Source: Mobula hypostoma
Taxonomy: Eukaryota
Reading direction: 5' to 3'
Length of the DNA stretch: 64,000 bases
Assembly: GCF_963921235.1 (NCBI RefSeq)
Contig: NC_086097.1
Location: 83,764,001 to 83,828,000 of the forward strand
The position numbers and the translations under genes were made by a program. Below are positions 12,590 to 64,000 of this stretch, piece after piece (position 1 is the stretch's first letter; each line of letters starts with the position of its first letter). The notes under the pieces were generated by a model. That model was not told the DNA's origin, searched no databases, and saw only the letters and a program-made list of their open reading frames with translations.

Positions 12590-14209
12590 CAGTGGCATGC
12601 AAAAGTTTGGGCATGCTGGTCAAAATTTCTGTTACTGTGAATAGCTAAGCGAGTAAAAGATGAACTGATTTCCAAAAAGCATAAAGTTAAAGATGACACA
12701 TTTCTTTAATATTTTAAGCAAGATTACTTTTTTATTTCCATCTTTTACAGTTTCAAAATAACAAACAAGGAAAAGGGCCTGAAGCAAAAGTTTGGGCACC
12801 CTGCTTGGTCAGTATTTAGTAACACCCTCTTTGGCAAGTATCACAGCTTGTAAACGCTTTCTGTAGCCAGCTAAGGTCTTTCAATTCTTGTTTGGGGGAT
12901 TTTTGCCCATTCTTTCCTTGCAAAAGGCTTCTAGTACTGTGAGATTCTTGGGCTGTCTTGCATGCACTGCTCTTTTGAGGTCTATCCACAGATTTTCAAT
13001 GATGTTTAGGTCGGAGGACTGTGAGGACCATGGCAAAACCTTCAGCTTGCGCCTCTTGAGGTAGTCCATTGTGGATTTTGAGGTGTGTTTAGGATCATTA
13101 TCCTGTTGTAGAAGCCATCCTCTTTTCATCTTCAGCTTTTTTACAGACGGTGTGATGTTTGCTTCCAGAATTTGCTGGTATTTAATTGAATTCATTCTTC
13201 CCTCTACCAATGAAATATTCTCTGTGCCACTGGCTGCAACAGAAGCCCAAAGCATGTTCGATTCACCCCCGTGCTTAACAGTTGGAGGGGTTCTTTTCAT
13301 GTAATTCTGCACCCTTTTTTCTCCAAACATACCTTTGCTCATTGTGGCCAAAAAGTTCTAATTTAACTTTATCAGTCCACGGGACTTGTTTCCAAAATGC
13401 ATCAGGCTTGTTTAGATGTTCCTTTGCAAACCTTTGACGCTGAATTTTGTGGTGAGGACGCAGGAAAGGTTTTCTTCTGATGACTCTTCCATGAAGGTCA
13501 TATTTATGTAGGTGTCGCTGCACAGTAGAACAGTGCACCACCACTCCAGAGTCTGCTAAATCTTCCTGAAGGTCTTTTGCAGTCAAACAGGGGTTTTGAT
13601 TTGCCTTTCTAGCAATCCTACGAGCAGTTCTCTCGGAAAGTTTTCTTGGCCTTCCAGACCTCAACTTGACCTCCACCGTTCCTGTTAATTGCCATTTCTT
13701 AATTACATTATGAACCGAGGAAACGACTACCTGAAAATGCTTTGCTATCTTCTTATAGCCTTCTCCTGCTTTATGGGCATCATTTATTTAAATTTTCAGA
13801 GTGCTAGGCAGCGGCTTAGAGGAGCCCATGGCTGTTGATTGTCGGGACAAGGTTTGAGGAGTCAGGGTATTTATAAAGCTTTGAAATTTGCATCACCTGG
13901 CCTTTCCTAACAATGATTGTGAACAAGCCATAGCCCTAACAAGCTAACTAAGGTCTGAGACCGTGTTAAAAGTTATCTGAGAGCTCAAATCTCTTGGGGT
14001 GCCCGAACTTTTGCATAGTGCTCCTTTCCTTTTTTTCACTCTAAAATTGTACAAAACAAAAATAATACACTAATCTTGCTTAAAATGTTGAAAAGAATGT
14101 TTCATCTTTAACTTTATGACTTTTGGAGATCAGTTCATCTTCTACTCACTTAACTATTCACATTAACAGAAATTTTGACCAGGGGTGCCCAAACTTTTGC
14201 ATACCACTA
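12590..14209 (-). mobile_element. Full-length Tc1 DNA transposon (DD34E, IR/DR type), about 1.62 kb
   Basis: TA flanks; ~210-bp TIRs starting CAGTGG, each with two CAAAAGTTTGGGCA-like direct repeats. Confidence 0.95.
12809..13829 (-). pseudogene. Tc1 transposase with one in-frame stop and a few frameshifts
   Basis: ATG at 13829 (MGSSKPL..GYKKIAK), GRPRK, WTD, QQDNDPKH..(34 residues)..E, C-terminus AKEGVTKY*. Confidence 0.9.
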
Positions 14210-16657: not shown

Positions 16658-16949
16658 GTTACTGTATATATTATGCATGGGAATGGGAGTCATTTGGCCC
16701 TTCAAGTCTCCAGCAGCTCTGAGCAATCCCATTCCTCACTGTCTTTCAACGTGACCAGACTCGGAGGACGGTAGGGGTAGAAGATATTCAAGTGAGAAGG
16801 AGTGAAGTCATAGAGTGGTTTAAGAGTCAGGGAGAGAATCTTTTAAATGAGGTATTAAAAGATTTTACTTTCTAAAATTTCAAGTAAATATGAAAGGAGT
16901 TGATTGATGCTGACCCCGGAGAATACAGAAAACATTAATTACTTGGGCA

Positions 16950-17150
16950 CAGACAAGAGAAAATCTGCAGATGCTGGAAACCCAAGCAACACAAACAAAA
17001 TGCTGGAGGAACTCAGCAGGCCAGGCAGCATCTAGGAAAAGAGCACAGGCGACATTTTGGGCCAAATCCCTTTGGCAGGACTCTGAAACGTCGACTGTAA
17101 TTCTTTTCCTAGATGCTGCCTGGCCTGCTGAGTTCCTACAGCATTTTATG
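16950..17150. mobile_element. Penelope-like pseudo-LTR fold-back
   Basis: Arms aaaatgctggaggaactcagcaggccaggcagcatctaggaaaaga / tcttttcctagatgctgcctggcctgctgagttcctacagcatttt, with gaaacgtcgactg in the centre. Confidence 0.75.
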
Positions 17151-18489
17151 AATTATTTGGGTTAAGGCAAAAGTGCGGTATGTATGATTTCCTTGACCTG
17201 GCTAATCTAAAGTGTCTGTACTGCCAAGCAAGTGATGCTGTGAAAATGAAGAAGGAGACCAATTTAAGGTTGCTTGTCTTTATTTGTTTGTTGTGTTACC
17301 AGACATTTAATAAGCGGAAGCAACATGTGTACCATCAGTCTCGGAGGCTTCGATGAAGGGGATGCTGATTCTTATAGTCTGCTGGTTGGACAATGCCTGT
17401 AACATTCAGAACCACCATCTCTTTCACAAGGAGTTTCCAATGTTTTTTGCAGTGCTGTCATTTATTTTTGAATGGAGGCACAGCTAGCATTTATTGCCAG
17501 CCACGAAGCGCCCTCAAGGAGGTATTTGTAAGGTGCCTTCTCGAATCGCTGCAGTCCTCATGGTGTTTCTGGGCAGGACGTTCCAGGACATGAGGAAAGA
17601 ACATATTAACCCACCTACTCTAGGAAGCAAGGCAATCCCAGAGTAAGGGTAAAAAGGAACAAAACATATCTCTTTGTTAATCTTAATTATGAGCAACACA
17701 TTTGTTTGGAATTTCAGATTTGGCAAGTATAGCTTTAGCTGCGGATGTATGTCTCCTATACAGGAAATGGCCTGACTTGACCCAACATCCTTGAAAGGAC
17801 TGCATTTGTGTAGAGAGCAGCGATGTCCACAGTATACGTACTATGGTTTCTTCAGTAACGTGTGCAGTGAAGTTTCATCCACTACGTTCTAATAAGCTAC
17901 AAGAATATATCCAACCATCACTTTAGGGAAACTGACATTGACCAGTGGAATTAAAGTGCAAAGTCGCTATTCTCAGCAGAAGCTGCCCATTAGATTCTTG
18001 GTTATCAGGAGGAATATTGCTATTTGGTTTGTAGCCTATTCTGCTAAAATAAAGAGTTTATTATTGTGGACCGGCTTCTGTGCAGAACTAACACCACAGA
18101 GGACTGCAGAAGGAACAGAGCTTTACTGGTATTCATTGTCATTAACCACGAGCTGCTTTCCGGACAGATTTGCCAAGCAAGGTGCAAGCCAGCAAAGAGT
18201 ATAAAAGTTAAATTCCTCCTTTAAGCTTTTGATTTAAAAGAAACCCTGTGCCAAACAGTTTCAAGATTACACTAACACCTGGGTAAAGAGTAACTGTAAA
18301 TAATTTAGCAATGGCATTATAAATGGGATTATTAATGAAAGCCAGAAGCCATGGATGAATCGGGAGATTGACAGTAAGCTGAGGGCTATACTTGTTGCAT
18401 TTAGAGCCAGCTATCTATTGCTCTACACAAAATCCAGGTATGACCTCGGGAAAACCATTATGAAAGCAAAAAGAAACTCAGCAGGCCAT

Positions 18490-19055
18490 GTCGTAAAGCT
18501 CCTCCGCTCCATTCCCCAAAAGCAGAACTTCCTGTTGGCCCAATACTTTAATTCTGATTCCCATTCCTGTTGTGACATGTTGGTCCACGTGCCACGATGA
18601 GGCCACCCTGGGGGTGAAGGAGGAACATCTTGTATTCGGGCTGGCTAGCCTCCAACCTGATGGTGTGAATATCAATTACTCCTTCTGGGATAAAAAATGT
18701 TTCCCTCCCCCTCCCCTCTTCTTCTTTCCCCTCTCTGGCCTCTTACCTCTTCTCACCTGCCCATCATCTCCTCGTGGTGCCCCTTCTCCCATGGTCCACA
18801 CTCCTCCCCAGAACGATTCTTTCCTGTCCTGCCATTTACCTTTCCTACCCACCTGGCTTCACCCATCATCTTCGCGCTATCCTCCTTCCACCCAACCCCC
18901 GGCTTTTTATTCTGGTGTCTCCCCACTTCTTTTCTAGTCCTGAAGAAGGATCTCGGCCCTTTATTTCCATAGGTGCTGCCTGACCTGCTGAGTTCGTCCA
19001 GCATTTTGTGTGTGTGTTGCTTTGGATTTTTAGTATCTGCAGAATTTATTGTGTT
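18490..19055 (+). mobile_element. Penelope-like element 3' end (GIY-YIG C-terminus plus pseudo-LTR)
   Basis: CHDEATLGVKEEHLVFGLASLQPDGVNINYS, a pyrimidine-rich spacer, and a partial hammerhead (agtcctgaagaagg) lacking GAAA. Confidence 0.75.
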
Positions 19056-28700: not shown

Positions 28701-30189
28701 ATCTCGTTAGATTCTGGACTAGTTCCTGAGGATTGGAGGGTGGCTAATGTAACCCCACTTTTTAAAAAAGGAGGGAGAGAGAAACCGGGGAATTATAGGC
28801 CGGTTAGCCTAACGTCGGTGGTGGGGAAACTGCTGGAGTCAGTTATCAAGGATGTGATAACAGCACATTTGGAAAGCGGTGAAATGATCGGACAAAGTCA
28901 GCATGGATTTGTGAAAGGAAAATCATGTCTGACGAATCTCATAGAATTTTTTGAGGATGTAACTAGTAGAGTGGATAGGGGAGAACCAGTGGATGTGGTA
29001 TATTTGGATTTTCAAAAGGCTTTTGACAAGGTCCCACATAGGAGATTAGTGTGCAAACTTAAAGCACACGGTATTGGGGGTAAGGTATTGGTGTGGGTGG
29101 AGAATTGGTTAGCAGACAGGAAGCAAAGAGTGGGAATAAACGGGACCTTTTCAGAATGGCAGGCGGTGACTAGTGGGGTACCGCAAGGCTCAGTGCTGGG
29201 ACCCCAGTTGTTTACAATATATATTAATGACTTGGATGAGGGAATTAAATGCAGCATCTCCAAGTTTGCGGATGACACGAAGCTGGGTGGCAGTGTTAGC
29301 AGTGAGGAGGATGCTAAGAGGATGCAGGGTGACTTGGATAGGTTGGGTGAGTGGGCAAACTCATGGCAGATGCAATTTAATGTGGATAAATGTGAAGTTA
29401 TCCACTTTGGTGGCAAAAATAGGAAAACAGATTATTATCTGAATGGTGGCCGATTAGGAAAAGGGGAGGTGCAACGAGACCTGGGTGTCATTATACACCA
29501 GTCATTGAAAGTGGGCATGCAGGTACAGCAGGCGGTGAAAAAGGCGAACGGTATGCTGGCATTTATAGCGAGAGGATTCGAGTACAGGAGCAGGGAGGTA
29601 CTACTGCAGTTGTACAAGGCCTTGGTGAGACCACACCTGGAGTATTGTGTGCAGTTTTGGTCCCCTAATCTGAGGAAAGACATCTTTGCCATAGAGGGAG
29701 TACAAAGAAGGTTCACCAGATTGATTCCTGGGATGGCAGGTCTTTCATATGAAGAAAGACTGGATGAACTGGGCTTGTACTCGTTGGAATTTAGAAGATT
29801 GAGGGGGGATCTGATTGAAACGTATAAGATCCTAAAGGGATTGGACAGGCTAGATGCAGGAAGATTGTTCCCGATGTTGGGGAGGTCTAGAACGAGGGGT
29901 CACAGTTTGAGGATAGAGGGGAAGCCTTTTAGGACCGAGGTTAGGAAAAACTTCTTCACACAGAGAGTGGTGAATCTGTGGAATTCTCTGCCACAGCAAA
30001 CTGTTGAGGCCAGTTCATTAGCTATGTTTAAAAGGAAGTTAGATATGGCCCTTGTGGCTACAGGGGTCAGGGGGTATGGAGGGAAGGCTGGGTTCTGAGT
30101 TGGATGATCAGCCATGATCATAATAAATGGCGGTGCAGGCTCGAAGGGCCGAATGGCCTACTCCTGCACCTATTTTCTATGTTTCTATG
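28701..30189 (+). mobile_element. Young 5'-truncated CR1 LINE with uninterrupted RT frame (28740-30098, 452 aa)
   Basis: [32 protein letters not shown]; (TTTCTATG)3 tail; 9-bp flanking duplication TTTCTATGA. Confidence 0.96.
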
Positions 30190-30494: not shown

Positions 30495-31587
30495 AAAGCA
30501 GTGGAGACAATGTTTAAGATGGTAGATGGGTCTAAAATGGCAGTTGTTTTAGAACTGTACATGACAGGGGAATGATGATGTGCCATATTGCTTTCATCTG
30601 ATCATGGTCCAAGCATTGTTTGGTGATGTGACAATTGTTGATAGTACAACTAATGTGTTGGACTGGATCTTTGACCTGTGGAAAGACTTGTCCAACTGAC
30701 CTGTCATTCTGGAAGTTGGCTTAGCTGGGTCTTTTGAAAACTCATTACTTCTAGCGGCAGTGCTCTGTTAAACAGTGACCCTCCTCTTGACATCTTCCCA
30801 TCACAATGCTTCCACTGATTCTCTTCAGGTGTATGTAATAGGAATTGAGGGCATGGAATTTTTAAAACCCGCTCATTAAATTAGACCATATATTTAAATA
30901 AATACAATTGTTGGATGTGACTCTTATTAAAAAGTCTATATACATTGATCTAAGCTCATGTATAAGACTATGCCAACTTATAAAATAAGATCACATGATC
31001 ATTTACAATTTTGTTTGATGCTTTGTTTCAGTTTCTCAGATGGACACAGGGCTACAAGAGTGAAAACATGACTTTGTACATATCTCACATTCTGTGCTGT
31101 TGGTTGACCTTGTAAAACTGAGCTGATGGGAATATGTACTGTTCAATCCCAAGTTAGCTCAGGATCCCTGTGCCTGCATGCATTCATAACCTGCTCTCCC
31201 TCTAACTCTTGGACATAATGAAGTGAATAGTTCACTATGCACTGTGTCAATAGTAAGTGCTGGATTAACATTTAATAAGGCCAGCAGCTAATCAACACAT
31301 GGCTAAGAAATTATTTACTCTGTTAGTAAAGCCACAGTGACCTTCATAAAAACTACAGTGAAGTGAAGAATTGATAAATAATGAAAATCTCGGTCTTTTG
31401 AATAATGCTGTGGCTGCTTTGTGAGCAGCCTATTCTCTCCCCAGGACTGTTGCTTTGCCAGGAACTGAGGGTACTGCAGTATCTTGACTGGCAAAGTCCT
31501 CCGTCCCTTTTAGATTCTCAGTCAGTGCGGCCATTCATCTTTGCTCCCTGTTTGAACTAGGTAAAAGACAGCATCATATGAGACTCA

Positions 31588-32310
31588 ACACACAAGATGC
31601 TGGAGGAACACAGCAGGTCAGGTGGTATCTATGGAGAAGAATAAACAGTCGATGTTTTTGGCTGAGACCCTTCATCAAGATAGGAAAGGAAGGGGGAAAG
31701 AAGCCAGAATAAGAAGATGGGGGGAGAGGAAGGAGTACAGGCTAGAAGGTGACAGAGGAAACACAGTGGATGGGGGGGGGGCGGGGTGAAGTAAGGAGCT
31801 GGGAGGTAATAGGTAGAAAAGGTAAGGGGCTGGAGAAGAAGGTATCTATTTGGAGAGGAGAGTGGACCATGGAATAAAGGGAAGGAGGAGGGGTGCCAGG
31901 GGGAGTTCTTATGCAAGTGAGTAGAAGAGAAGAGGTAAGCGGAGAAGTGAAGAAGGGGGAAGAGGGAGAGGAAAATTACTGGAAGTTATGGAAATCAATG
32001 TTCATGCCATCAGGTTGGAAGCTGACTGTATGGAATATGATGCATTGTTCCTCCAACCTGAGAGTGGCCTCATTGTGGCCATGAACTGACATGTCGGAAT
32101 GGGAATGAGGATTGGAATTGAAAAGATTCTTGAAATTTACCAGAATAAATAGTCGACGTTTTTGACTGCAACCCTTCATCAGCACTGGTAAATCCGGCTT
32201 TTTGCAGATGGAGTGAAGGTGCTGGACCAAGCTTTCCACAATTTTCATTCGGTCTCAATGATGTAGAGGAGGGCACATCGGGAGCACTAGATACAGTACA
32301 TGAACAAGCT
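31588..32310 (-). mobile_element. Penelope-like element 3' end (GIY-YIG C-terminus plus pseudo-LTR with decayed hammerhead)
   Basis: QHLHSICKKPDLP..FNSNPHSHSDMSV..EATLRLEEQCIIF..QPDGMNIDF; antisense tgatgaagggtctcagcc at about 31645-31680. Confidence 0.8.
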
Positions 32311-32541
32311 TTTCAGAGATTATTGTGTTATTATCATTGTCCTTAGAATGCATTTGCAGATTAAAACTCATAACCCAAATGGTGGCTGCTTCACACGCTA
32401 TCTGGGCACACAGGATGGTGAGTGGCAGGTCTGTGCAGGAGGATGCTACAGTTGAAGGAATGTGAAATATTTCCAGATGCACAGACCTGAAGAATGTTAA
32501 GATTGTCTGGACGATGGACGAGCAGATACTAACACATAAGA

Positions 32542-32770
32542 ACAGGAATTCTGCAGATGCTGGAAATTCAAGCAACACACATCAAAGTTGCTGGTGAATG
32601 CAGCAGGCCAAACAGCATCTATAGGAAGAGGCACAGTCGACGTTTCAGGCTGAGACCCTTCGTCAGGACGAAGGTCCTGACGAAGGGTCTCGGCCTGAAA
32701 CGTCGACTGCGCCTCTTCCTATAGATGCTGTTTGGCCTGCTGCATTCACCAGCAACTTTGATGTGTGTTG
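32542..32770. mobile_element. Penelope-like pseudo-LTR palindrome with 13-bp target-site duplication
   Basis: Arms 32571-32669 and 32674-32772 (2 mismatches); CTAACACATAAGA at 32529-32541 and 32771-32783. Confidence 0.88.
32673..32708 (+). ncRNA. Minimal type-I hammerhead ribozyme motif (mirror copy on - strand at about 32634-32669)
   Basis: GGUC-CUGACGA-A-GGGU(CUCG)GCCU-GAAA-C-GUC^GACU: intact core boxes, stem I GGUC/GACU, stem II, palindromic ACGU stem III. Confidence 0.72.
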
Positions 32771-32989
32771 CTAACACATAAGAGCTTTGATTTGTTTAGA
32801 TTTTTACCCCTCTCATATCTCTCTTAAGGGAATTAACTGAAAGGATTTGACAGTCCGAATTTTTTTTCTAGTTCAAAACAGATCTTGAAATTAGAACTAA
32901 GCATTTATTTTGTAAAGATTAAATACCAACTTTTATGTTTGTGACATGCCCATCAAAACATCGAAGCATACAGTGAAATGCATTGCTTG

Positions 32990-34075
32990 ACCATAGACCA
33001 TGACATAAGAGCAGAATATAGCTGTTTGCCCATCGAGTCTTCTCTGCCATTCCGTCGTAGATGATTTAATAACCCTCTCAGCCTCATTGTCCTGCCTTCT
33101 GCCCATAATCTTTGACAACTTTACTAATGAAGAACCTGTCAACCTCTGCTTTAAATAAACACAATGTCTTGGCCCCCACAACCATCTATGGCAATGAATT
33201 CCACTAATTCACCACCCTCCTGATAAGGAAACTCCTCGTCATCTTTGTTTTAACAGAACATCCTTCTATTCGGTGAATTCCCCACTATAGGAAACAACTC
33301 CTCCACAACCATTCTCTAGGCCTTCAAATATTTGATAGGTTTCAATAAGATCCCCTTCCTCATTCTTCAAAACTCCTTCACCTATCCTGCCCCTTCCAGA
33401 TTAATCCCAGAAACTCCAGCCATTGCTATTCTGCCATCATCCATGCTAGTGTTCTTTTCCAATCAACTTTGGCCAACTCCTCTCTTATGCCTCTCTAATT
33501 CCCTTTAGTCCACTGTAATACTGATGCATCTGATTTTAGCTTTGCCCTCTCAAACTGCAGGGCGAATTCAGTCATATTATGATCACTGACTCCTAAGGGC
33601 TTCTTTACCTTGAACTTCCTGATCAGATCTGGCTTATTACACAACACCCATTCTAGAATTTCCTTTTCCCAAATGAGCTCAACCACAAGTTGCTCTAAAA
33701 AGCCATCTCATAGGCATTCTACAAACTCCTTCTCTTGGGATCCAGCACTAACCTGATCTTCGCAATCTACCTCCATATTGAAATCCCCATGACTGGTGTA
33801 ATATTGCCCTCTTTACAGGACTTTTCTATCTCCCATTGTATTTTGTACTCCACATCCTGGCTACTGTGTGGAAGCCTGTATATAACTCCCATCAGGGTCT
33901 TTTTATCCTGGTAGTTTCTTAACTCTACACATAAGAATTCCACGTCTTCTGATCCTGGGTCATCTCTTTCTAAGGATTTTATTTCAATTTTTAACCAAGA
34001 CAGCCACCCATCCCTTCTGTCTCTCCTTTCGATACAATGTTTCTTGAATGTTAAGCTCTCATCTATCATCTTCTT
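32990..34075 (-). mobile_element. CR1 fragments (endonuclease region and 3' end, internally deleted)
   Basis: VELRN..KKTLMGVIYRLP and PLGVSDHNMTEF in minus frames. Confidence 0.8.
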
Positions 34076-38129: not shown

Positions 38130-38860
38130 AAATCCTCCCCACAGCTCTAACGAACCTGCCTGCAAAGATATTGGTTCCCCTTGAGTTCAGATGTAACCCA
38201 CCCTTTTTGTACAGGTTATACCTTCCTCAGAAGGAATCCCAATGATCCAAAAATCTGAAGCCCTGCCTCTTGCACCAATTCCTCAGCCACACATTCCTCT
38301 GACATATCCTATTCTTACCCTCACAGGTGCATGACACAGGTAGCAATCCAGAGATTACTAACCTTGAGGCCTTGCTTTTCAGCTTTCTACCTAACACCCG
38401 ATTCTCTCTTCAGGATCTCATCCCTTTTCTCAAATACGTTATTGGTACCAAAATGTACCATGACCTCTGGCTGTTCACACGTGCCCCCCTCCCACCCACC
38501 TTTAGAATACTATGGACCTGATCTGAGACTTCCCTTTCCCTGGCAGCCCAGAGGCAATATACTATCTGGGTTCTCTTTCACGTCCACGGAATTTCTTGTC
38601 TGCCCCTATCACTATTCACTCCTCTTCTCCCTCCTTTCGTTCTGAGACACTGTGCCAAAGAACTGGTGCTGCAGCTTGCCCTGGTAGGTCATCCCCCACA
38701 ACAGTATCCAAAACGGTATATTTATTATTAAAGGGAATGGCCACGGGTACTCTGCACTACCTGCCTATTCTCTTTCCCTCTCCTGGCAGTCACCCGGCTA
38801 TCCACTTCCTGCAACTTGGGTTTGACGACCTCCCTGTAGCTCTTGTCTATCACCTCTCCT
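38130..38860 (-). mobile_element. CR1 ORF1 (esterase-like) remnant
   Basis: Minus frame QPEVMVHFGTN, typical of the CR1 ORF1 SGNH-like domain. Confidence 0.6.
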
Positions 38861-39272
38861 CATATACCGTCTAGGTAGTCTCCAGCCCCTTGGTATGAAC
38901 ATAGAATTCTCCAGCTTCCGGGAATTCCCTCCTCCCCCACTCCATTCCTATGTCAGTCTGCCCCCTCCCCCAGCTGCCTACCACTTCCCTCATGGTTCCG
39001 CCTCCTTCTACTACCCATTGTGTTTTCCCCTATTCCTTCTTCACCTTTCCTGCTTATCATCTCCCTGCCTCCCCTCCCCCACCCCTTTATCGTTCCCCTT
39101 ACTGGATTTTCACCTGGAACCTACCAGCCTTCTCCTTCCCACCCTCCCCCGACCTTCTTTATAGGGCCTCTGCCCCTTCCCTCTACAGTTCTAACGAAGG
39201 GTTCCGGCCCGAAACGTCGACTCATCGTTTCCATGGATGCTGCCCGACCTGCTGAGTTCCGCCAGCGTTGCT
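38861..39272 (+). mobile_element. Penelope-like 3' end with a mutated hammerhead at 39186-39223
   Basis: IYRLGSLQPLGMNIEFSSFR; cagtt-CTAACGA-agggttccggccc-GAAA-cgtc-gact (core G5 changed to A). Confidence 0.8.
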
Positions 39273-39869
39273 TTGAGCCAAAAGTCATCCAGCTGCAGCT
39301 CTAATTTGCATCAAATCAAATCAGCGAGGGTTGTGGTCATGCTGGGCAGCACGCAAGTGTCACCATGCTTCCGGTGCCAAAATAGCATGTCTATAACTCA
39401 TAGATGATACATCTTGGCATATGGGAGGAAACCAGAGCACCAGGAGAAAAGCTATGTGGTCACAGGGAGAACTTGTAATCTCATTACAGATGGGAATTGC
39501 TGGCACTGTATTCATATTATGATAACCACCATATTAATGTGCCTCCCTAATTTGTAACATCAGCAGCACCTCTTTACAATAAGCGAGGTGGAAATTGATG
39601 TTGGGTCTCTAGGAAAGCTTCAAACTGAGTTCTTCGAGTGTATGGGGAGTCACATAGACTTGGGGAATACGCTTAATATACAACTGAATAGTAAAACAGC
39701 TTAAGGAGATGAACGGTATTTTCCTGCTCCTCTAGGCTGAAGGGAAGGATTCGGCTCCCATTCTGCTGATTAAACAACATTTCTACAATTATGTTAGAGA
39801 GCAGGAGGAACTCTGCAACAATTAATGCTCGGAGATTAATGCTGCATAAAATCTCTGATCGTATTAGAG

Positions 39870-41689: not shown

Positions 41690-43243
41690 CAGGTGTCCCC
41701 TGCTTTTCGAACGTTCACTTTACAAAACCTCACTGTTACAAAAGACCTACATTAGTACCCTGTTTTCGCTTTCAGAAGGTGTTTTCTCTGTTACGAAAGA
41801 AAAAGGGCGCGATAAAAGGCAGCGCGCGCCCCAAGCAGCCGCTCTCCCCCGGTTTCAGAGCTGCATTGCTTAAACACGTGCCTGTGAGCAGCCGTTTGCA
41901 AGATGAGTTCTAAGGTATTGGAAAAGCCTGAAAGAGCTCGTAAGGGTGTTACACATAGCATATAACTAGACATAACTAAGCGTTTTGATCGTGGTGAACG
42001 AAGTAAGGACAACGTGAGTTTGGCTTGTGGAAGCTGACGAACATGATGTTGAAGAGGTTTTGGCATCCCATGACCAAGAACTGACAGATGAAGAGCTGAT
42101 GCAATTGGAAGAAAAAAGGATAACAATCGAAACCGAATGAATAATGATAAAGTATGAATTTAATTTTGAAAGGGTACATCAGTTTAGGGGATATTTTCAG
42201 GATGGTTTGAGTCCTTACAAAGAACTGTGTGATAGAAAAATGCACGAGGCTCAGCAGTCAAGCAAGCCTTCCACATCAGCCACAGCAGACGACGAACCTC
42301 GACCTTTGACGTCGAGGTGGACAGAGATAGAAGAAGATGAGCTGCCTGCTCTAATGGAAACAGACGACGAGATGACACCCCAGTGTCCCACCACCCCAAC
42401 CCCCAGTCTATGGACAGATACCGATTCGCGGAGAATGCAACGGTAGCCGGGAGGCACACAGCACATCTTTAAGAAAAAAGTCGAAATAAACATGCTAATT
42501 AATTAGGTGCCGCTGACACGTAATTGTCGGCCCAGATCAGAGACGACACAATTGGAAATCGGCACTGATCTGGGCCGACAATTACGTGTCGGGCGGCACC
42601 TAATTAATTAGCATGTTTATTTTGGCTTTTCTTCGTAAAGATGTGCTGTGTGCCTCCCGGCTACTGCTGCATTCCTGCATGCTTCGCGGCAATGTATCGC
42701 TCGGTGGCCTGGAGGGTGGGTGCCACTGCACCACCCAAACTCCGACTCAGCCTAACACACCATCATCAGTGTGCTCGGCGCTGTCTTCCCGATTCCCTTA
42801 AGTGATACTACACTGTACATACATTATTTCTACTTTATATAGGCTGTGTATTTTTACGTGTTATTTGGTATGATTTGGCAGCTTCATAGCTTAAAGGTTA
42901 CAGGACAGAGTGTTCTTGCCAACAGCGCTTGCGTGAGATTTTCTGCCAACGGCACTTGTGTGAGATTTTCACTATGGCGATCTGTGCAGGCAATCGTTAT
43001 AGAGAAGTATTTCTATTTTATAGGCTGTGTATTTATCACATCATTCCTGCTTTTACTATATGTTACTGTTATTTTAGGTTTTATCTGTTATTTGGCATGA
43101 TTTGGTAGGTTATTTTTGGGTCTGCGAACGCTCACAAAATTTTTCCATATGGATAAATGGTAATTGCTTCTTCGCTTTATGACATTTTGGCTTATGAACC
43201 GTTTCATAGGAACGCTGTACCTTCGGATGGCGGGGTAAACCTG
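41690..43243 (+). mobile_element. Tigger/pogo internal-deletion derivative
   Basis: TA flanks; TIRs CAGGTGTCCCCTGCTTTTCGAA / rc CAGGTTTACCCCGCCATCCGAA; N-terminal MSSKVLEKPERARKGVT..RFDRGE joined to C-terminal DVEEVLASHDQELTDEELMQLEE. Confidence 0.85.
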
Positions 43244-57124: not shown

Positions 57125-57397
<273 letters not shown>

Positions 57398-61691: not shown

Positions 61692-61814
<123 letters not shown>

Positions 61815-62049: not shown

Positions 62050-64000
62050 TAAATAAATAGAAAAATAAACATGATCAGGGCAAGGCAAGGGGAGCTGGTG
62101 GGGCTGAGTTCATCTGAAACCAAAAGAGGAATCTCTTCATGAAGACACGGCAGAGATATTAACTGAGAACTTTATTACATCCTCACCTGGAAGATGGAGC
62201 TGGAATCTCACCAAAGAAAGATGTAGTAAAGACTGGTTGGATTGGAAAGTGATTTTAAACAAAGGACGTTTCCACAGAGGTTAGCTGCACTTAATATGAC
62301 CCGGTCCTAGGTTGCTGCAGAACTAAAAAAGAGAATTACAAAGGCCCTGACCATAATCTTGCAAGCAACTGTAGAATCAAGAGTTGTACCCAAGTACAGA
62401 AAAGTTGCAAATATAATGTTGTTCAAATAAAATGGGATACGGATAGATCCAACAAATATCGTTTAGTTTGACCTCTGTAGTGGGAAAGTTCTAGACACAA
62501 TAATCAGAGACAGAATTGTCAGTCACTTGGACCAATATGAAAATAAAATGCAGGAAATATGAGACAAAAATAGGAAAAGGCAAGCCAGGCAGTATCTGAA
62601 GAAAGAGAAACTGAGTTAACGTTTCAGGCTGTAGACCGGATGTCAGGGTCTTTGACCTGAAACGTTCACTCTGTTTCTCTTTCCACAGATGCTGCCTGAT
62701 CTGCTGAGTGTTTCCAGGGTTTCCTGTTTTCATCTTGGACCAGAGTGCATTGAATAAGGAAAGCAAGTATGGATTTGTTGAAGACAAGTCATGGCTAACT
62801 AACTTGGTAGAGATTTAGCTGATATGACGCAGATGTTGTGGATGTGCTTTATACCAAATTCAAAATATTTAAATGGGCTATTAACAGATTTATTATCAAA
62901 TTATAGGGCCTGAAATAATGGGGACTATTGCATTGATAGAAAGTGGATTGAGCTGCAGGAAATGGAGAATAGGAAAGAAATTTGCTTTTCCAACCGGAGG
63001 GAAGTGTACAGCAGAGTACCCTGGGATTCAGTGTTAGGAATACTATTGTTTTCTTAATGCATAGTAACGACGTGGAGTTGGGTGTTCAGGCGGAATTTCC
63101 AAACCTGCAGATAACACAAAGAAGAGTGAGTGGTAAACTATGAGGAGGATGGTATTAAGGCGATGCAGGCAGGCTTATGGAATGTCTAGAAGATAAAGTT
63201 GAATACTGAGAAATGTAAAATGCAATGCTTTAGTAGAAAGAGTGGGAAGAGCAAATAAAATAAATGAAGGAATACTAATCTGAAAGAGTACAAGAACAGA
63301 AATATGGAGGCAAAGGCTAAGTGGCAGAGGAAGTCAAGAAAGTGGCAAAAGTCATATAGATTACTAGACTTCAGAAACATAGGCATAAGAAAGCAAGATA
63401 CAGAAATTTGAGCAGCTTCTATAATTAAACTGTTTCATCCACACATGGAGTATTGTGATCTATTTCCACCACATTTTAGGAGGACATAAAAAGCTTGGGA
63501 GAGGTTTGATAGTGCAGCGTTATTAGAGCCCAGCACCTCAGAGTTCAGAGTTAATTCCAACGTCATCTGTAAGGAGCCTACACATCATCCCCAAGGAATG
63601 AGTGGGATTTCTCTGGGGGCTCCAGTTTCCTCCCACAGTCTAAAGACGTACTGGTTAGTAGGTTAGTCAGTCATTGTAAATTGTCGCATGGTTAGGCCAG
63701 GGTTAAATTAGGGGTTACTGAGCATTGCGGCTCAAAAGACCAAAAGAGCCGATTCCGCACTGTATCTCAATAAATAAATCAATCCCCGGAATGCGGGGCT
63801 GTGTTATGCAGATAAACTGGTGAATATGGGGTCGTTCTCCTCAAAATAGAGAAGGATGTGCACAAATCTGATAGATGCATTTAAAACCATTAGGAATACA
63901 GAGAGAAATGTTGAAAGAAGATGTCCCCATTGGCAGAGTCACAACTAAGGGACATAAAATGAAAGTCACTGACAGAAAATGCAAGAGGGGCAAGAGTACA
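62050..64000 (+). mobile_element. Old CR1 carrying a nested Penelope-like fold-back (about 62575-62735) and a V-SINE (about 63508-63783)
   Basis: gtaccctgggattcagtgttagga and tggagtattgtg; fold-back arms aacgtttcagg / cctgaaacgtt. Confidence 0.65.

Follow-up and report, generated by a model that had tools for sequence, protein, structure and literature searches.

The insertion at positions 32529–32783 of the window (the whole 64,000-nt stretch of Mobula hypostoma DNA that was analysed) was very probably a young one, made up of two hammerhead-bearing ends of a Penelope-like element joined head to head. These ends were likely placed in a single event, with both nicked target strands acting as primers, and the hammerhead motifs that they carry are predicted to be inert.

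The inverted arms (32571–32669 and 32674–32772) were 99 nt each, 98% complementary and 4 nt apart. They differed at two paired positions (32633/32710 and 32651/32692), and both differences were transitions of the CpG/TpG type. The predicted fold of the insert had an energy of -211.7 kcal/mol (z = -28), and none of 200 shuffled sequences folded equally well. The inverted-repeat and family alignments identified the left arm as a pseudo-LTR end in reverse orientation (minus strand), and the right arm as a pseudo-LTR end in forward orientation (plus strand), without a tail. A 13-bp target-site duplication flanked the arms on the plus strand, with a left copy at 32529–32541 and a right copy at 32771–32783; the contigs of organisms B, C and D that carry the empty site had one copy only. 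The 99-bp arms with two mismatches, the 4-nt loop and the 13-bp direct repeat of the initial annotation were all reproduced; it is added here that the right arm overlaps the right copy by 2 nt. A 29-bp Penelope tail (32542–32570, minus strand) extended the left arm only, as was seen from alignment with the family copies at 16958 and 19046. At the tail boundary, family contigs had loose ends at 32541/32544 and extended about 10 nt further. The insert was asymmetric because these 29 bp aligned with other family copies. Hence, the 202-bp palindrome described earlier was retained in its arms and centre, but not as a symmetrical unit, since the left-only tail had been missed. The insert comprised 229 bp of element DNA plus one 13-bp copy, with arms of 128 nt (tail included) and 99 nt, and this stub had no protein-coding capacity. 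The identity between target and element was 1 nt at the left outer junction and 2 nt at the right. The 4-nt centre (32670–32673) may have been templated: with its neighbours it forms an 8-mer (at 32667) that recurs 12 nt further on in the hammerhead core (at 32679). A stem-loop (-18.2 kcal/mol) was predicted at the 3' end of the long arm (32542–32610, minus strand), and the short arm ended on its 3' strand.

The age and the reality of the insertion were evaluated over positions 32280–33000 in four sequencing runs (organisms A–D), which were picked for the empty-site test from the 24 runs listed. In all three of the other organisms (B, C and D), a single contig passed directly from 32528 to 32771 with one copy of the 13-mer, and the flanks diverged from the window by 1.5%, 4.2% and 5.3%, respectively. 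Therefore, the duplication is genuine and the insertion is young, which bears out both claims of the initial annotation. The insertion was absent even from the closest organism compared, so it showed no sign of conservation. In organism A, a 477-nt contig matched with 0 differences, the left flank was unbroken to 32566, and no branch occurred at the insertion site. This suggests that the sampled individual of organism A carries no empty allele, given that contigs drop rare variants and that the run may come from the assembly's own sample. The 13-mer was also considered as the tail of a SINE or LINE, since ACATAAGA occurs at three other places in the window and presumably resembles the tail of a shark repeat. 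The empty site rejected this as the cause of the second copy.

It is extremely unlikely that the palindrome was an artefact assembled from a fold-back read. Among the contig pieces listed for organism A, the right junction and the exact centre were absent and no piece crossed the whole insert, and the depth was 0 at 32805–32879, as such an artefact would allow; holes of this kind prove nothing. The artefact is opposed by the 13-mer, which is duplicated on both sides here and stands single at the genuine empty site of the three other organisms, and by the two CpG-type differences between the arms, the one-sided tail and the left junction seen in contigs. Moreover, three older pairs of the same build were present in the window, and contigs from other runs crossed a nearly identical centre.

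By blastn, the arms aligned with the termini of three longer window copies (E values of 5e-10 to 3e-6), at 31586–31680 (73.7% over 99 nt), 18965–19046 (77%) and 39188–39254 (75%). The neighbouring older copy (31583–32301, minus strand) had a broken GIY-YIG endonuclease end, a pyrimidine-rich 3' region and a decayed hammerhead-bearing end, and it matched the protein P0001 (tblastn E 1.9e-20). The second (18445–19043, plus strand; tblastn E 9.6e-12) had the endonuclease end, the 3' region and a hammerhead end with an internal deletion, and the third (38859–39299, plus strand; tblastn E 4.4e-6) had a decayed hammerhead. In each of them, a pyrimidine-rich stretch and a broken frame lay upstream of the arm-like end. 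The homologues of the frame at 31979–32254 were two proteins among 19 candidates (P0001 and P0002, of Mobula hypostoma and Hypanus sabinus), and these two matched all three longer copies (tblastn E 2e-20, 1e-11 and 4e-6). Both proteins gave a weak Pfam match to GIY-YIG that fell short of the curated threshold (E values of 5e-4 and 2e-3), and both contained a CX4CxxC linker and a YIDD motif, which we take to be the reverse transcriptase core. The window copies were truncated and had no linker. The Pfam search of the three window frames gave no endonuclease match, and their identity came through the homologues. A CX2-5CxxC linker before GIY-YIG was given as a mark of Neptune and Nematis in the survey cited (PMC8557442). 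Because the homologues have the GIY-YIG match, the YIDD motif and the CX4CxxC linker, the parent was likely a Neptune-type Penelope-like element of cartilaginous fish, as judged by sequence.

By the same evidence, the insert itself is almost certainly a Penelope stub, with the reading frame linked to it through older subfamilies of about 75% identity. The Penelope-like origin that had been proposed thus agreed with the homology of the arms to the ends of copies with Neptune-type endonuclease frames; the homology to terminal repeats of such an element, on which the proposal had been staked, was found through these older subfamilies. Pattern scans of viral and metagenome contigs for a full-length young parent returned 0 loci. 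The family was very large, with 65,982 contigs of one run aligned (a count of contigs and not of copies). Within the endonuclease frame of the older neighbouring copy lay a 50-nt fragment of a hammerhead end (32135–32190, minus strand), with a short shared stretch at the joint and a flanking 8-nt inverted repeat. It looks like a template switch during copying. Elements of other kinds were also seen in the window. Two overlapping frames at 12881–13787 (minus strand) were transposase-like, presumably of the Tc1/mariner type, and an apparently young open frame of 465 aa at 28701–30098 (plus strand) was assumed to encode a CR1-type LINE reverse transcriptase.

Each arm contained a minimal type-I hammerhead motif. 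The plus-strand motif occupied 32674–32707, with helix I at 32674–32676/32705–32707, the core at 32677–32683, an extra A at 32684, helix II at 32685–32688/32693–32696 and GAAA at 32697–32700. The predicted cut lay after C32704, as the initial annotation had correctly placed it. The minus-strand motif occupied 32636–32669. In both motifs, the core boxes CUGANGA and GAAA and a UH cut site were present, an extra nucleotide stood between positions 9 and 10.1 (A32684 and its mirror), and positions 15.2–16.2 were a palindromic ACGU without loop 3. The anatomy given earlier as minimal type I fits the published motif (PMC4209133). Helix I had 3 bp on the minus strand and 4 bp, wobble included, on the plus strand. 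The hallmark pair G10.1–C11.1 was replaced by G–U in both arms; among the nine rows of the window alignment with letters at this pair, G–U occurred in five, G–C in two and other combinations in two. The outer helix-I pairs of the parent appear to have been removed by the junction, judging from the family letters CA or TA before the first G, which would add two pairs.

A strict descriptor of the minimal hammerhead was run over both strands of the 64 kb and gave two matches, both in the insert; the mean was 0.01 in 100 dinucleotide shuffles, and none of the 100 gave two or more. In Rfam, no family reached its gathering score in the 64-kb window, and no hammerhead family was among the 12 matches at E values up to 10. 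The hammerhead search named as a check in the initial annotation thus succeeded with our own descriptor and not with Rfam. The Rfam matches to RRE and miRNA families were artefacts of the hairpin, far below the gathering scores. Among 13 decayed rows from the window, no double change was seen in any of nine pairs, and 79% of cells were paired compared with 12–60% when the structure was slid along. With no compensatory double changes in these rows, the hammerhead fold had no covariation support from the window.

Folding energies were consistent with inactivity. The 34-mer alone preferred an alternative pairing (-8.5 kcal/mol) over the hammerhead (-4.4 kcal/mol), and the dimer hammerhead fold had an energy of -6.3 kcal/mol versus -25.3 kcal/mol for the cofold minimum; neither the tertiary core nor possible assistance from proteins enters into these values. 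Both motifs are accordingly predicted to be inert. In published work, single minimal hammerheads showed no monomer cleavage, as reported in PMC4209133, and the Anolis hammerhead was cut only with protein and was dispensable for insertion, with no RNA-seq reads ending at the cut site in the data of that report (PMC11167929). The young subfamily had C at core position 7 (CUGACGA, 32680–32682), where older copies (31675 and 32180 regions) had U. This C strengthens the rival pairing with the cut-site strand and abolishes an ATG. In contigs of organisms A, C and D, positions 32707–32710 were joined back to 32674 with 1–5 letters between. If these joints are on the same strand, they would represent tandem hammerhead units of 36–40 nt elsewhere in the genomes, which could form a dimer ribozyme.

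The inner boundary of the arms coincided with the edge of the hammerhead. The first G of helix I, which lies 31 nt upstream of the predicted cut site, was the stopping point of both arms. Because the arms extend 31 nt beyond that site, the template was not cut by the ribozyme there, and a junction at the ribozyme cut site was rejected on the same ground. The long arm of an older pair ended, at 17081, within one base of the same place. A profile search listed 17 matches, of which three weaker ones were dropped and 14 were kept at E < 0.001. Nine of the 14 started at model positions 1–21 and one at 35, three ran on upstream, and one was internal to a longer copy. Counted by events, the tally was five of six (binomial P 0.008), with a profile built from the same copies and favouring long ones. 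Among the contig joints listed, 12 of 15 fell on 32673–32675 (356 more lay beyond those listed), a proportion that is inflated by the query edge and is not a clean test. Seven of the 12 listed joints with intervening letters fell on 32674, and all seven ended in A. A nearly identical centre with A at 32673 was crossed by 27, 18 and 10 contigs in three runs. Two of the three run-on copies had AG at the boundary after 72–92% pyrimidine, in the likeness of a splice acceptor, within an upstream region that is pyrimidine-rich throughout. An initiator motif was found at the boundary in one of these three copies and was weak. In Drosophila virilis, an intron reaches as far as the 5' side of helix I and stops there according to PMC4209133, and the Penelope intron and promoter of this species are treated in PMC2377424. 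It is possible, although rather unlikely, that the boundary is a defined RNA end. The palindromes would then be pairs of full-length run-off cDNAs, which a dimeric Penelope complex had primed on both target strands from two start sites, and the many copies in ray genomes would be a direct in vivo record of the Penelope integration mechanism. The copy described here shows a template that was copied through an uncut hammerhead and halted at its outer edge.

Three older inverted pairs were found in the window. The pair at 16934–17161 had a 14-bp duplication (two mismatches), a left-arm tail and a long arm that ended at the same hammerhead edge. The pair at 2709–2924 had a 13-bp duplication (one mismatch) and a left-arm tail, and that at 62526–62742 had a 9-bp duplication and a likely left-arm tail. 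Duplications were therefore present in four of the four pairs, with lengths of 13, 14, 13 and 9 bp and scores of 13, 8, 10 and 9 for the young pair and the pairs at 16934, 2709 and 62526, respectively; a score of 8 was reached by four of 300 random flank pairs. The longer arm or tail was on the left in all four (chance, 1 in 8). With four such pairs in one window, the miniature ribozyme-bearing insertion of the initial annotation is not a special element. At 42433–42674, three nested arm pairs (87–95%) formed an imperfect inverted repeat that spans about 240 bp; it was MITE-like and unrelated to the Penelope family.

The preferred mechanism can be described as follows. The target 13-mer went from one copy to two around 229 bp of element DNA. 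A GIY-YIG endonuclease would have cut the two strands 13 nt apart and left two 3' ends. One end would have primed at the distal start site, which gave the 128-nt arm with the tail, and the other at the proximal site, which gave the 99-nt arm, as in the reaction reported in PMC11167929; the 1–2 nt of identity between target and element at the outer junctions fits such priming. According to that report, both strands are nicked and extended by the Penelope protein, which initiates at two neighbouring internal sites separated by the length of the tail. Both cDNAs would then have halted at the first G of helix I, and their ends would have been joined through the four extra nucleotides. Whichever strand is transcribed, the antisense copy would precede the sense motif, and the latter would be zipped into the 99-bp hairpin. 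The two arms shared family-minority letters (32612/32731 and 32632/32711), which were present in 5–30% of the family depth. Because both arms carry these letters, they came from one source.

The preference for two-strand priming over a fold-back is held at about even probability. In the fold-back, which is possible although rather unlikely, one tailed cDNA would stop at the hammerhead edge, prime on itself, copy back 99 nt and join the other target end. Palindromes at inverted Penelope junctions were read as self-priming in one report (PMC3846280), and the centre with its neighbours repeats the core 8-mer 12 nt away, as is expected from short mispriming. Arms that are identical at birth are predicted by both mechanisms, and the minority letters common to both arms fit both; at 5–30% of the family depth these letters are not private errors, which takes weight from the fold-back. 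The fold-back is further opposed by the one-sided 29-nt tail, which corresponds to the spacing of the two start sites on strands that were both extended in vitro (PMC11167929). Furthermore, the arms stopped at clearly different depths of the motif in two of the four window pairs (model positions 2 versus 21 and 9 versus 19), so no hairpin symmetry is needed. It is very unlikely that the palindrome is instead transcribed and mobilised in one piece as a non-autonomous unit, in the manner of a hairpin retrozyme or a MITE. Some contigs across centres reached about eightfold the depth of the unique flanks (e.g., 1186 over nine contigs versus 15), so some centres do recur. Recurrent centres are also expected from a fixed stop point followed by one to three native letters, and the letters between the arms varied among contigs (TA, TTA and others). 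The four pairs of the window had four different centres and belonged to different subfamilies, and there was no tandem array such as that reported for animal retrozymes (bioRxiv 10.64898/2026.07.22.740005).

The insert lay 24.5 kb upstream of the first alpha-actinin exon seen in the window (57294–57380, plus strand). The next exon (61726–61813, plus strand) was located by homologue alignment. A tblastn search with six of the 120 listed homologues found no exon in the window for the first approximately 113 residues of alpha-actinin. With no upstream exon in 1–57293, the intron would exceed 57 kb if the gene is contiguous. The insert is probably inside the long intron that precedes exon 57294–57380. 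Hence, the actinin intron of the initial annotation is probable: two exons lie downstream on the plus strand, and the upstream exons would lie outside the window.

Within the insert, the hammerhead fold would cost 63.8 (plus) and 61.6 (minus) kcal/mol against the hairpin, and transcription in either direction yields the antisense copy before the sense one. The masking by the hairpin that was proposed for a read-through transcript is thus predicted by folding energies on both strands. The further proposal, in which masking accounts for the tolerance of the insertion, was not supported: the motif is clipped, 10.1–11.1 is G–U, and an alternative fold is preferred. Masking is probably not needed for tolerance because the motif probably would not cut anyway. 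Unpaired relatives of the motif occurred in the same region and strand at 18938–19043 and 39189–39299, both with damaged cores. A reading in which the antisense arm keeps an active ribozyme in check, masking permits the insertion, and the hairpin serves as a substrate of ADAR or Dicer with consequences for the host gene is highly improbable. The masking predicted on both strands speaks for it, and hairpins such as this one, of 99 bp and in an intron, are typical substrates for editing. Inverted regions of Penelope copies are a source of siRNAs in Drosophila (PMC3681739). This report makes the ADAR/Dicer idea plausible by analogy and also not new. The reading as a whole is opposed by the shortening of helix I to 3–4 bp, the G–U at 10.1–11.1 and hammerhead folds that are not the predicted minima for monomer or dimer, and by the published results on single minimal hammerheads and on the protein-dependent Anolis hammerhead (PMC4209133; PMC11167929). 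The absence of the insertion from the closest organism compared and the very large size of the family also count against it. The locus is useful as a clean presence/absence marker among related rays and, since its empty site is proven, as a nearly unmutated case of Penelope integration. As a young passenger insertion, it has little weight alone.

The features of the insert were compared with those of known systems. The insertion unit of endonuclease-positive Penelope-like elements consists of a pseudo-LTR, an adjacent inverted, 5'-truncated copy, a one-sided tail of 30–40 bp and a short target-site duplication (PMC8557442; PMC3846280), and the origin of the inverted ends and tails is described there as undefined (PMC8557442). 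The insert shares with these units the head-to-head inverted pseudo-LTRs, a 29-bp tail at one end, the duplication and a palindromic inner junction, and the longer window copies have a GIY-YIG frame upstream of the repeat and also fix the orientation. It differs from them in that it is reduced to two ends without a reading frame, and in that both arms stop at the same base. In the rotifer cases, palindromes occur at the inverted junction with duplications of 8–10 bp (PMC3846280), whereas the duplication of the insert has 13 bp.

The motifs resemble the minimal hammerheads of metazoan Penelope elements (Cervera and De la Pena 2014, PMC4209133) in the core boxes, the extra nucleotide, the absence of loop 3 and the place in the terminal repeat. 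They differ from the motifs described there in G–U instead of G10.1–C11.1 and in a helix I of 3–4 bp rather than 4–5 bp. An earlier report had described opposed minimal hammerheads in Schistosoma, at distances of 100–700 bp (PMC4209133); in contrast to these, which have a helix II of 7–8 bp, the insert has a helix II of 4 bp and motifs only 4 nt apart. For PAc, a Poseidon element of Anolis (Frangieh et al. 2024, PMC11167929), two start sites likewise define the tail, both target strands are extended, and an uncut hammerhead is copied. The stem-loop at the PAc start site resembles that predicted at 32542–32610 (minus strand). Unlike PAc, the window family has a Neptune-type linker, and ATT is absent from the target cut sites of the insert. 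Paired inverted products of PAc are not described in the parts of that report used here. A literature search combining "twin priming" and "Penelope" gave nothing on how such paired products arise by title or start of abstract; the term "twin priming" comes from LINE-1 work.

Animal non-LTR retrozymes, which were reported in one chondrichthyan, are similar to the insert in that they are non-coding, contain type-I hammerheads and derive from Penelope pseudo-LTRs (bioRxiv 10.64898/2026.07.22.740005). They consist of tandem direct repeats that can form dimer ribozymes and circles, whereas the two units of the insert are inverted and each strand has a single sense motif. The inverted pseudo-LTR, the one-sided tail and the opposed hammerheads are each already published, and the insert is probably an unremarkable dead-end product of an element type already known.
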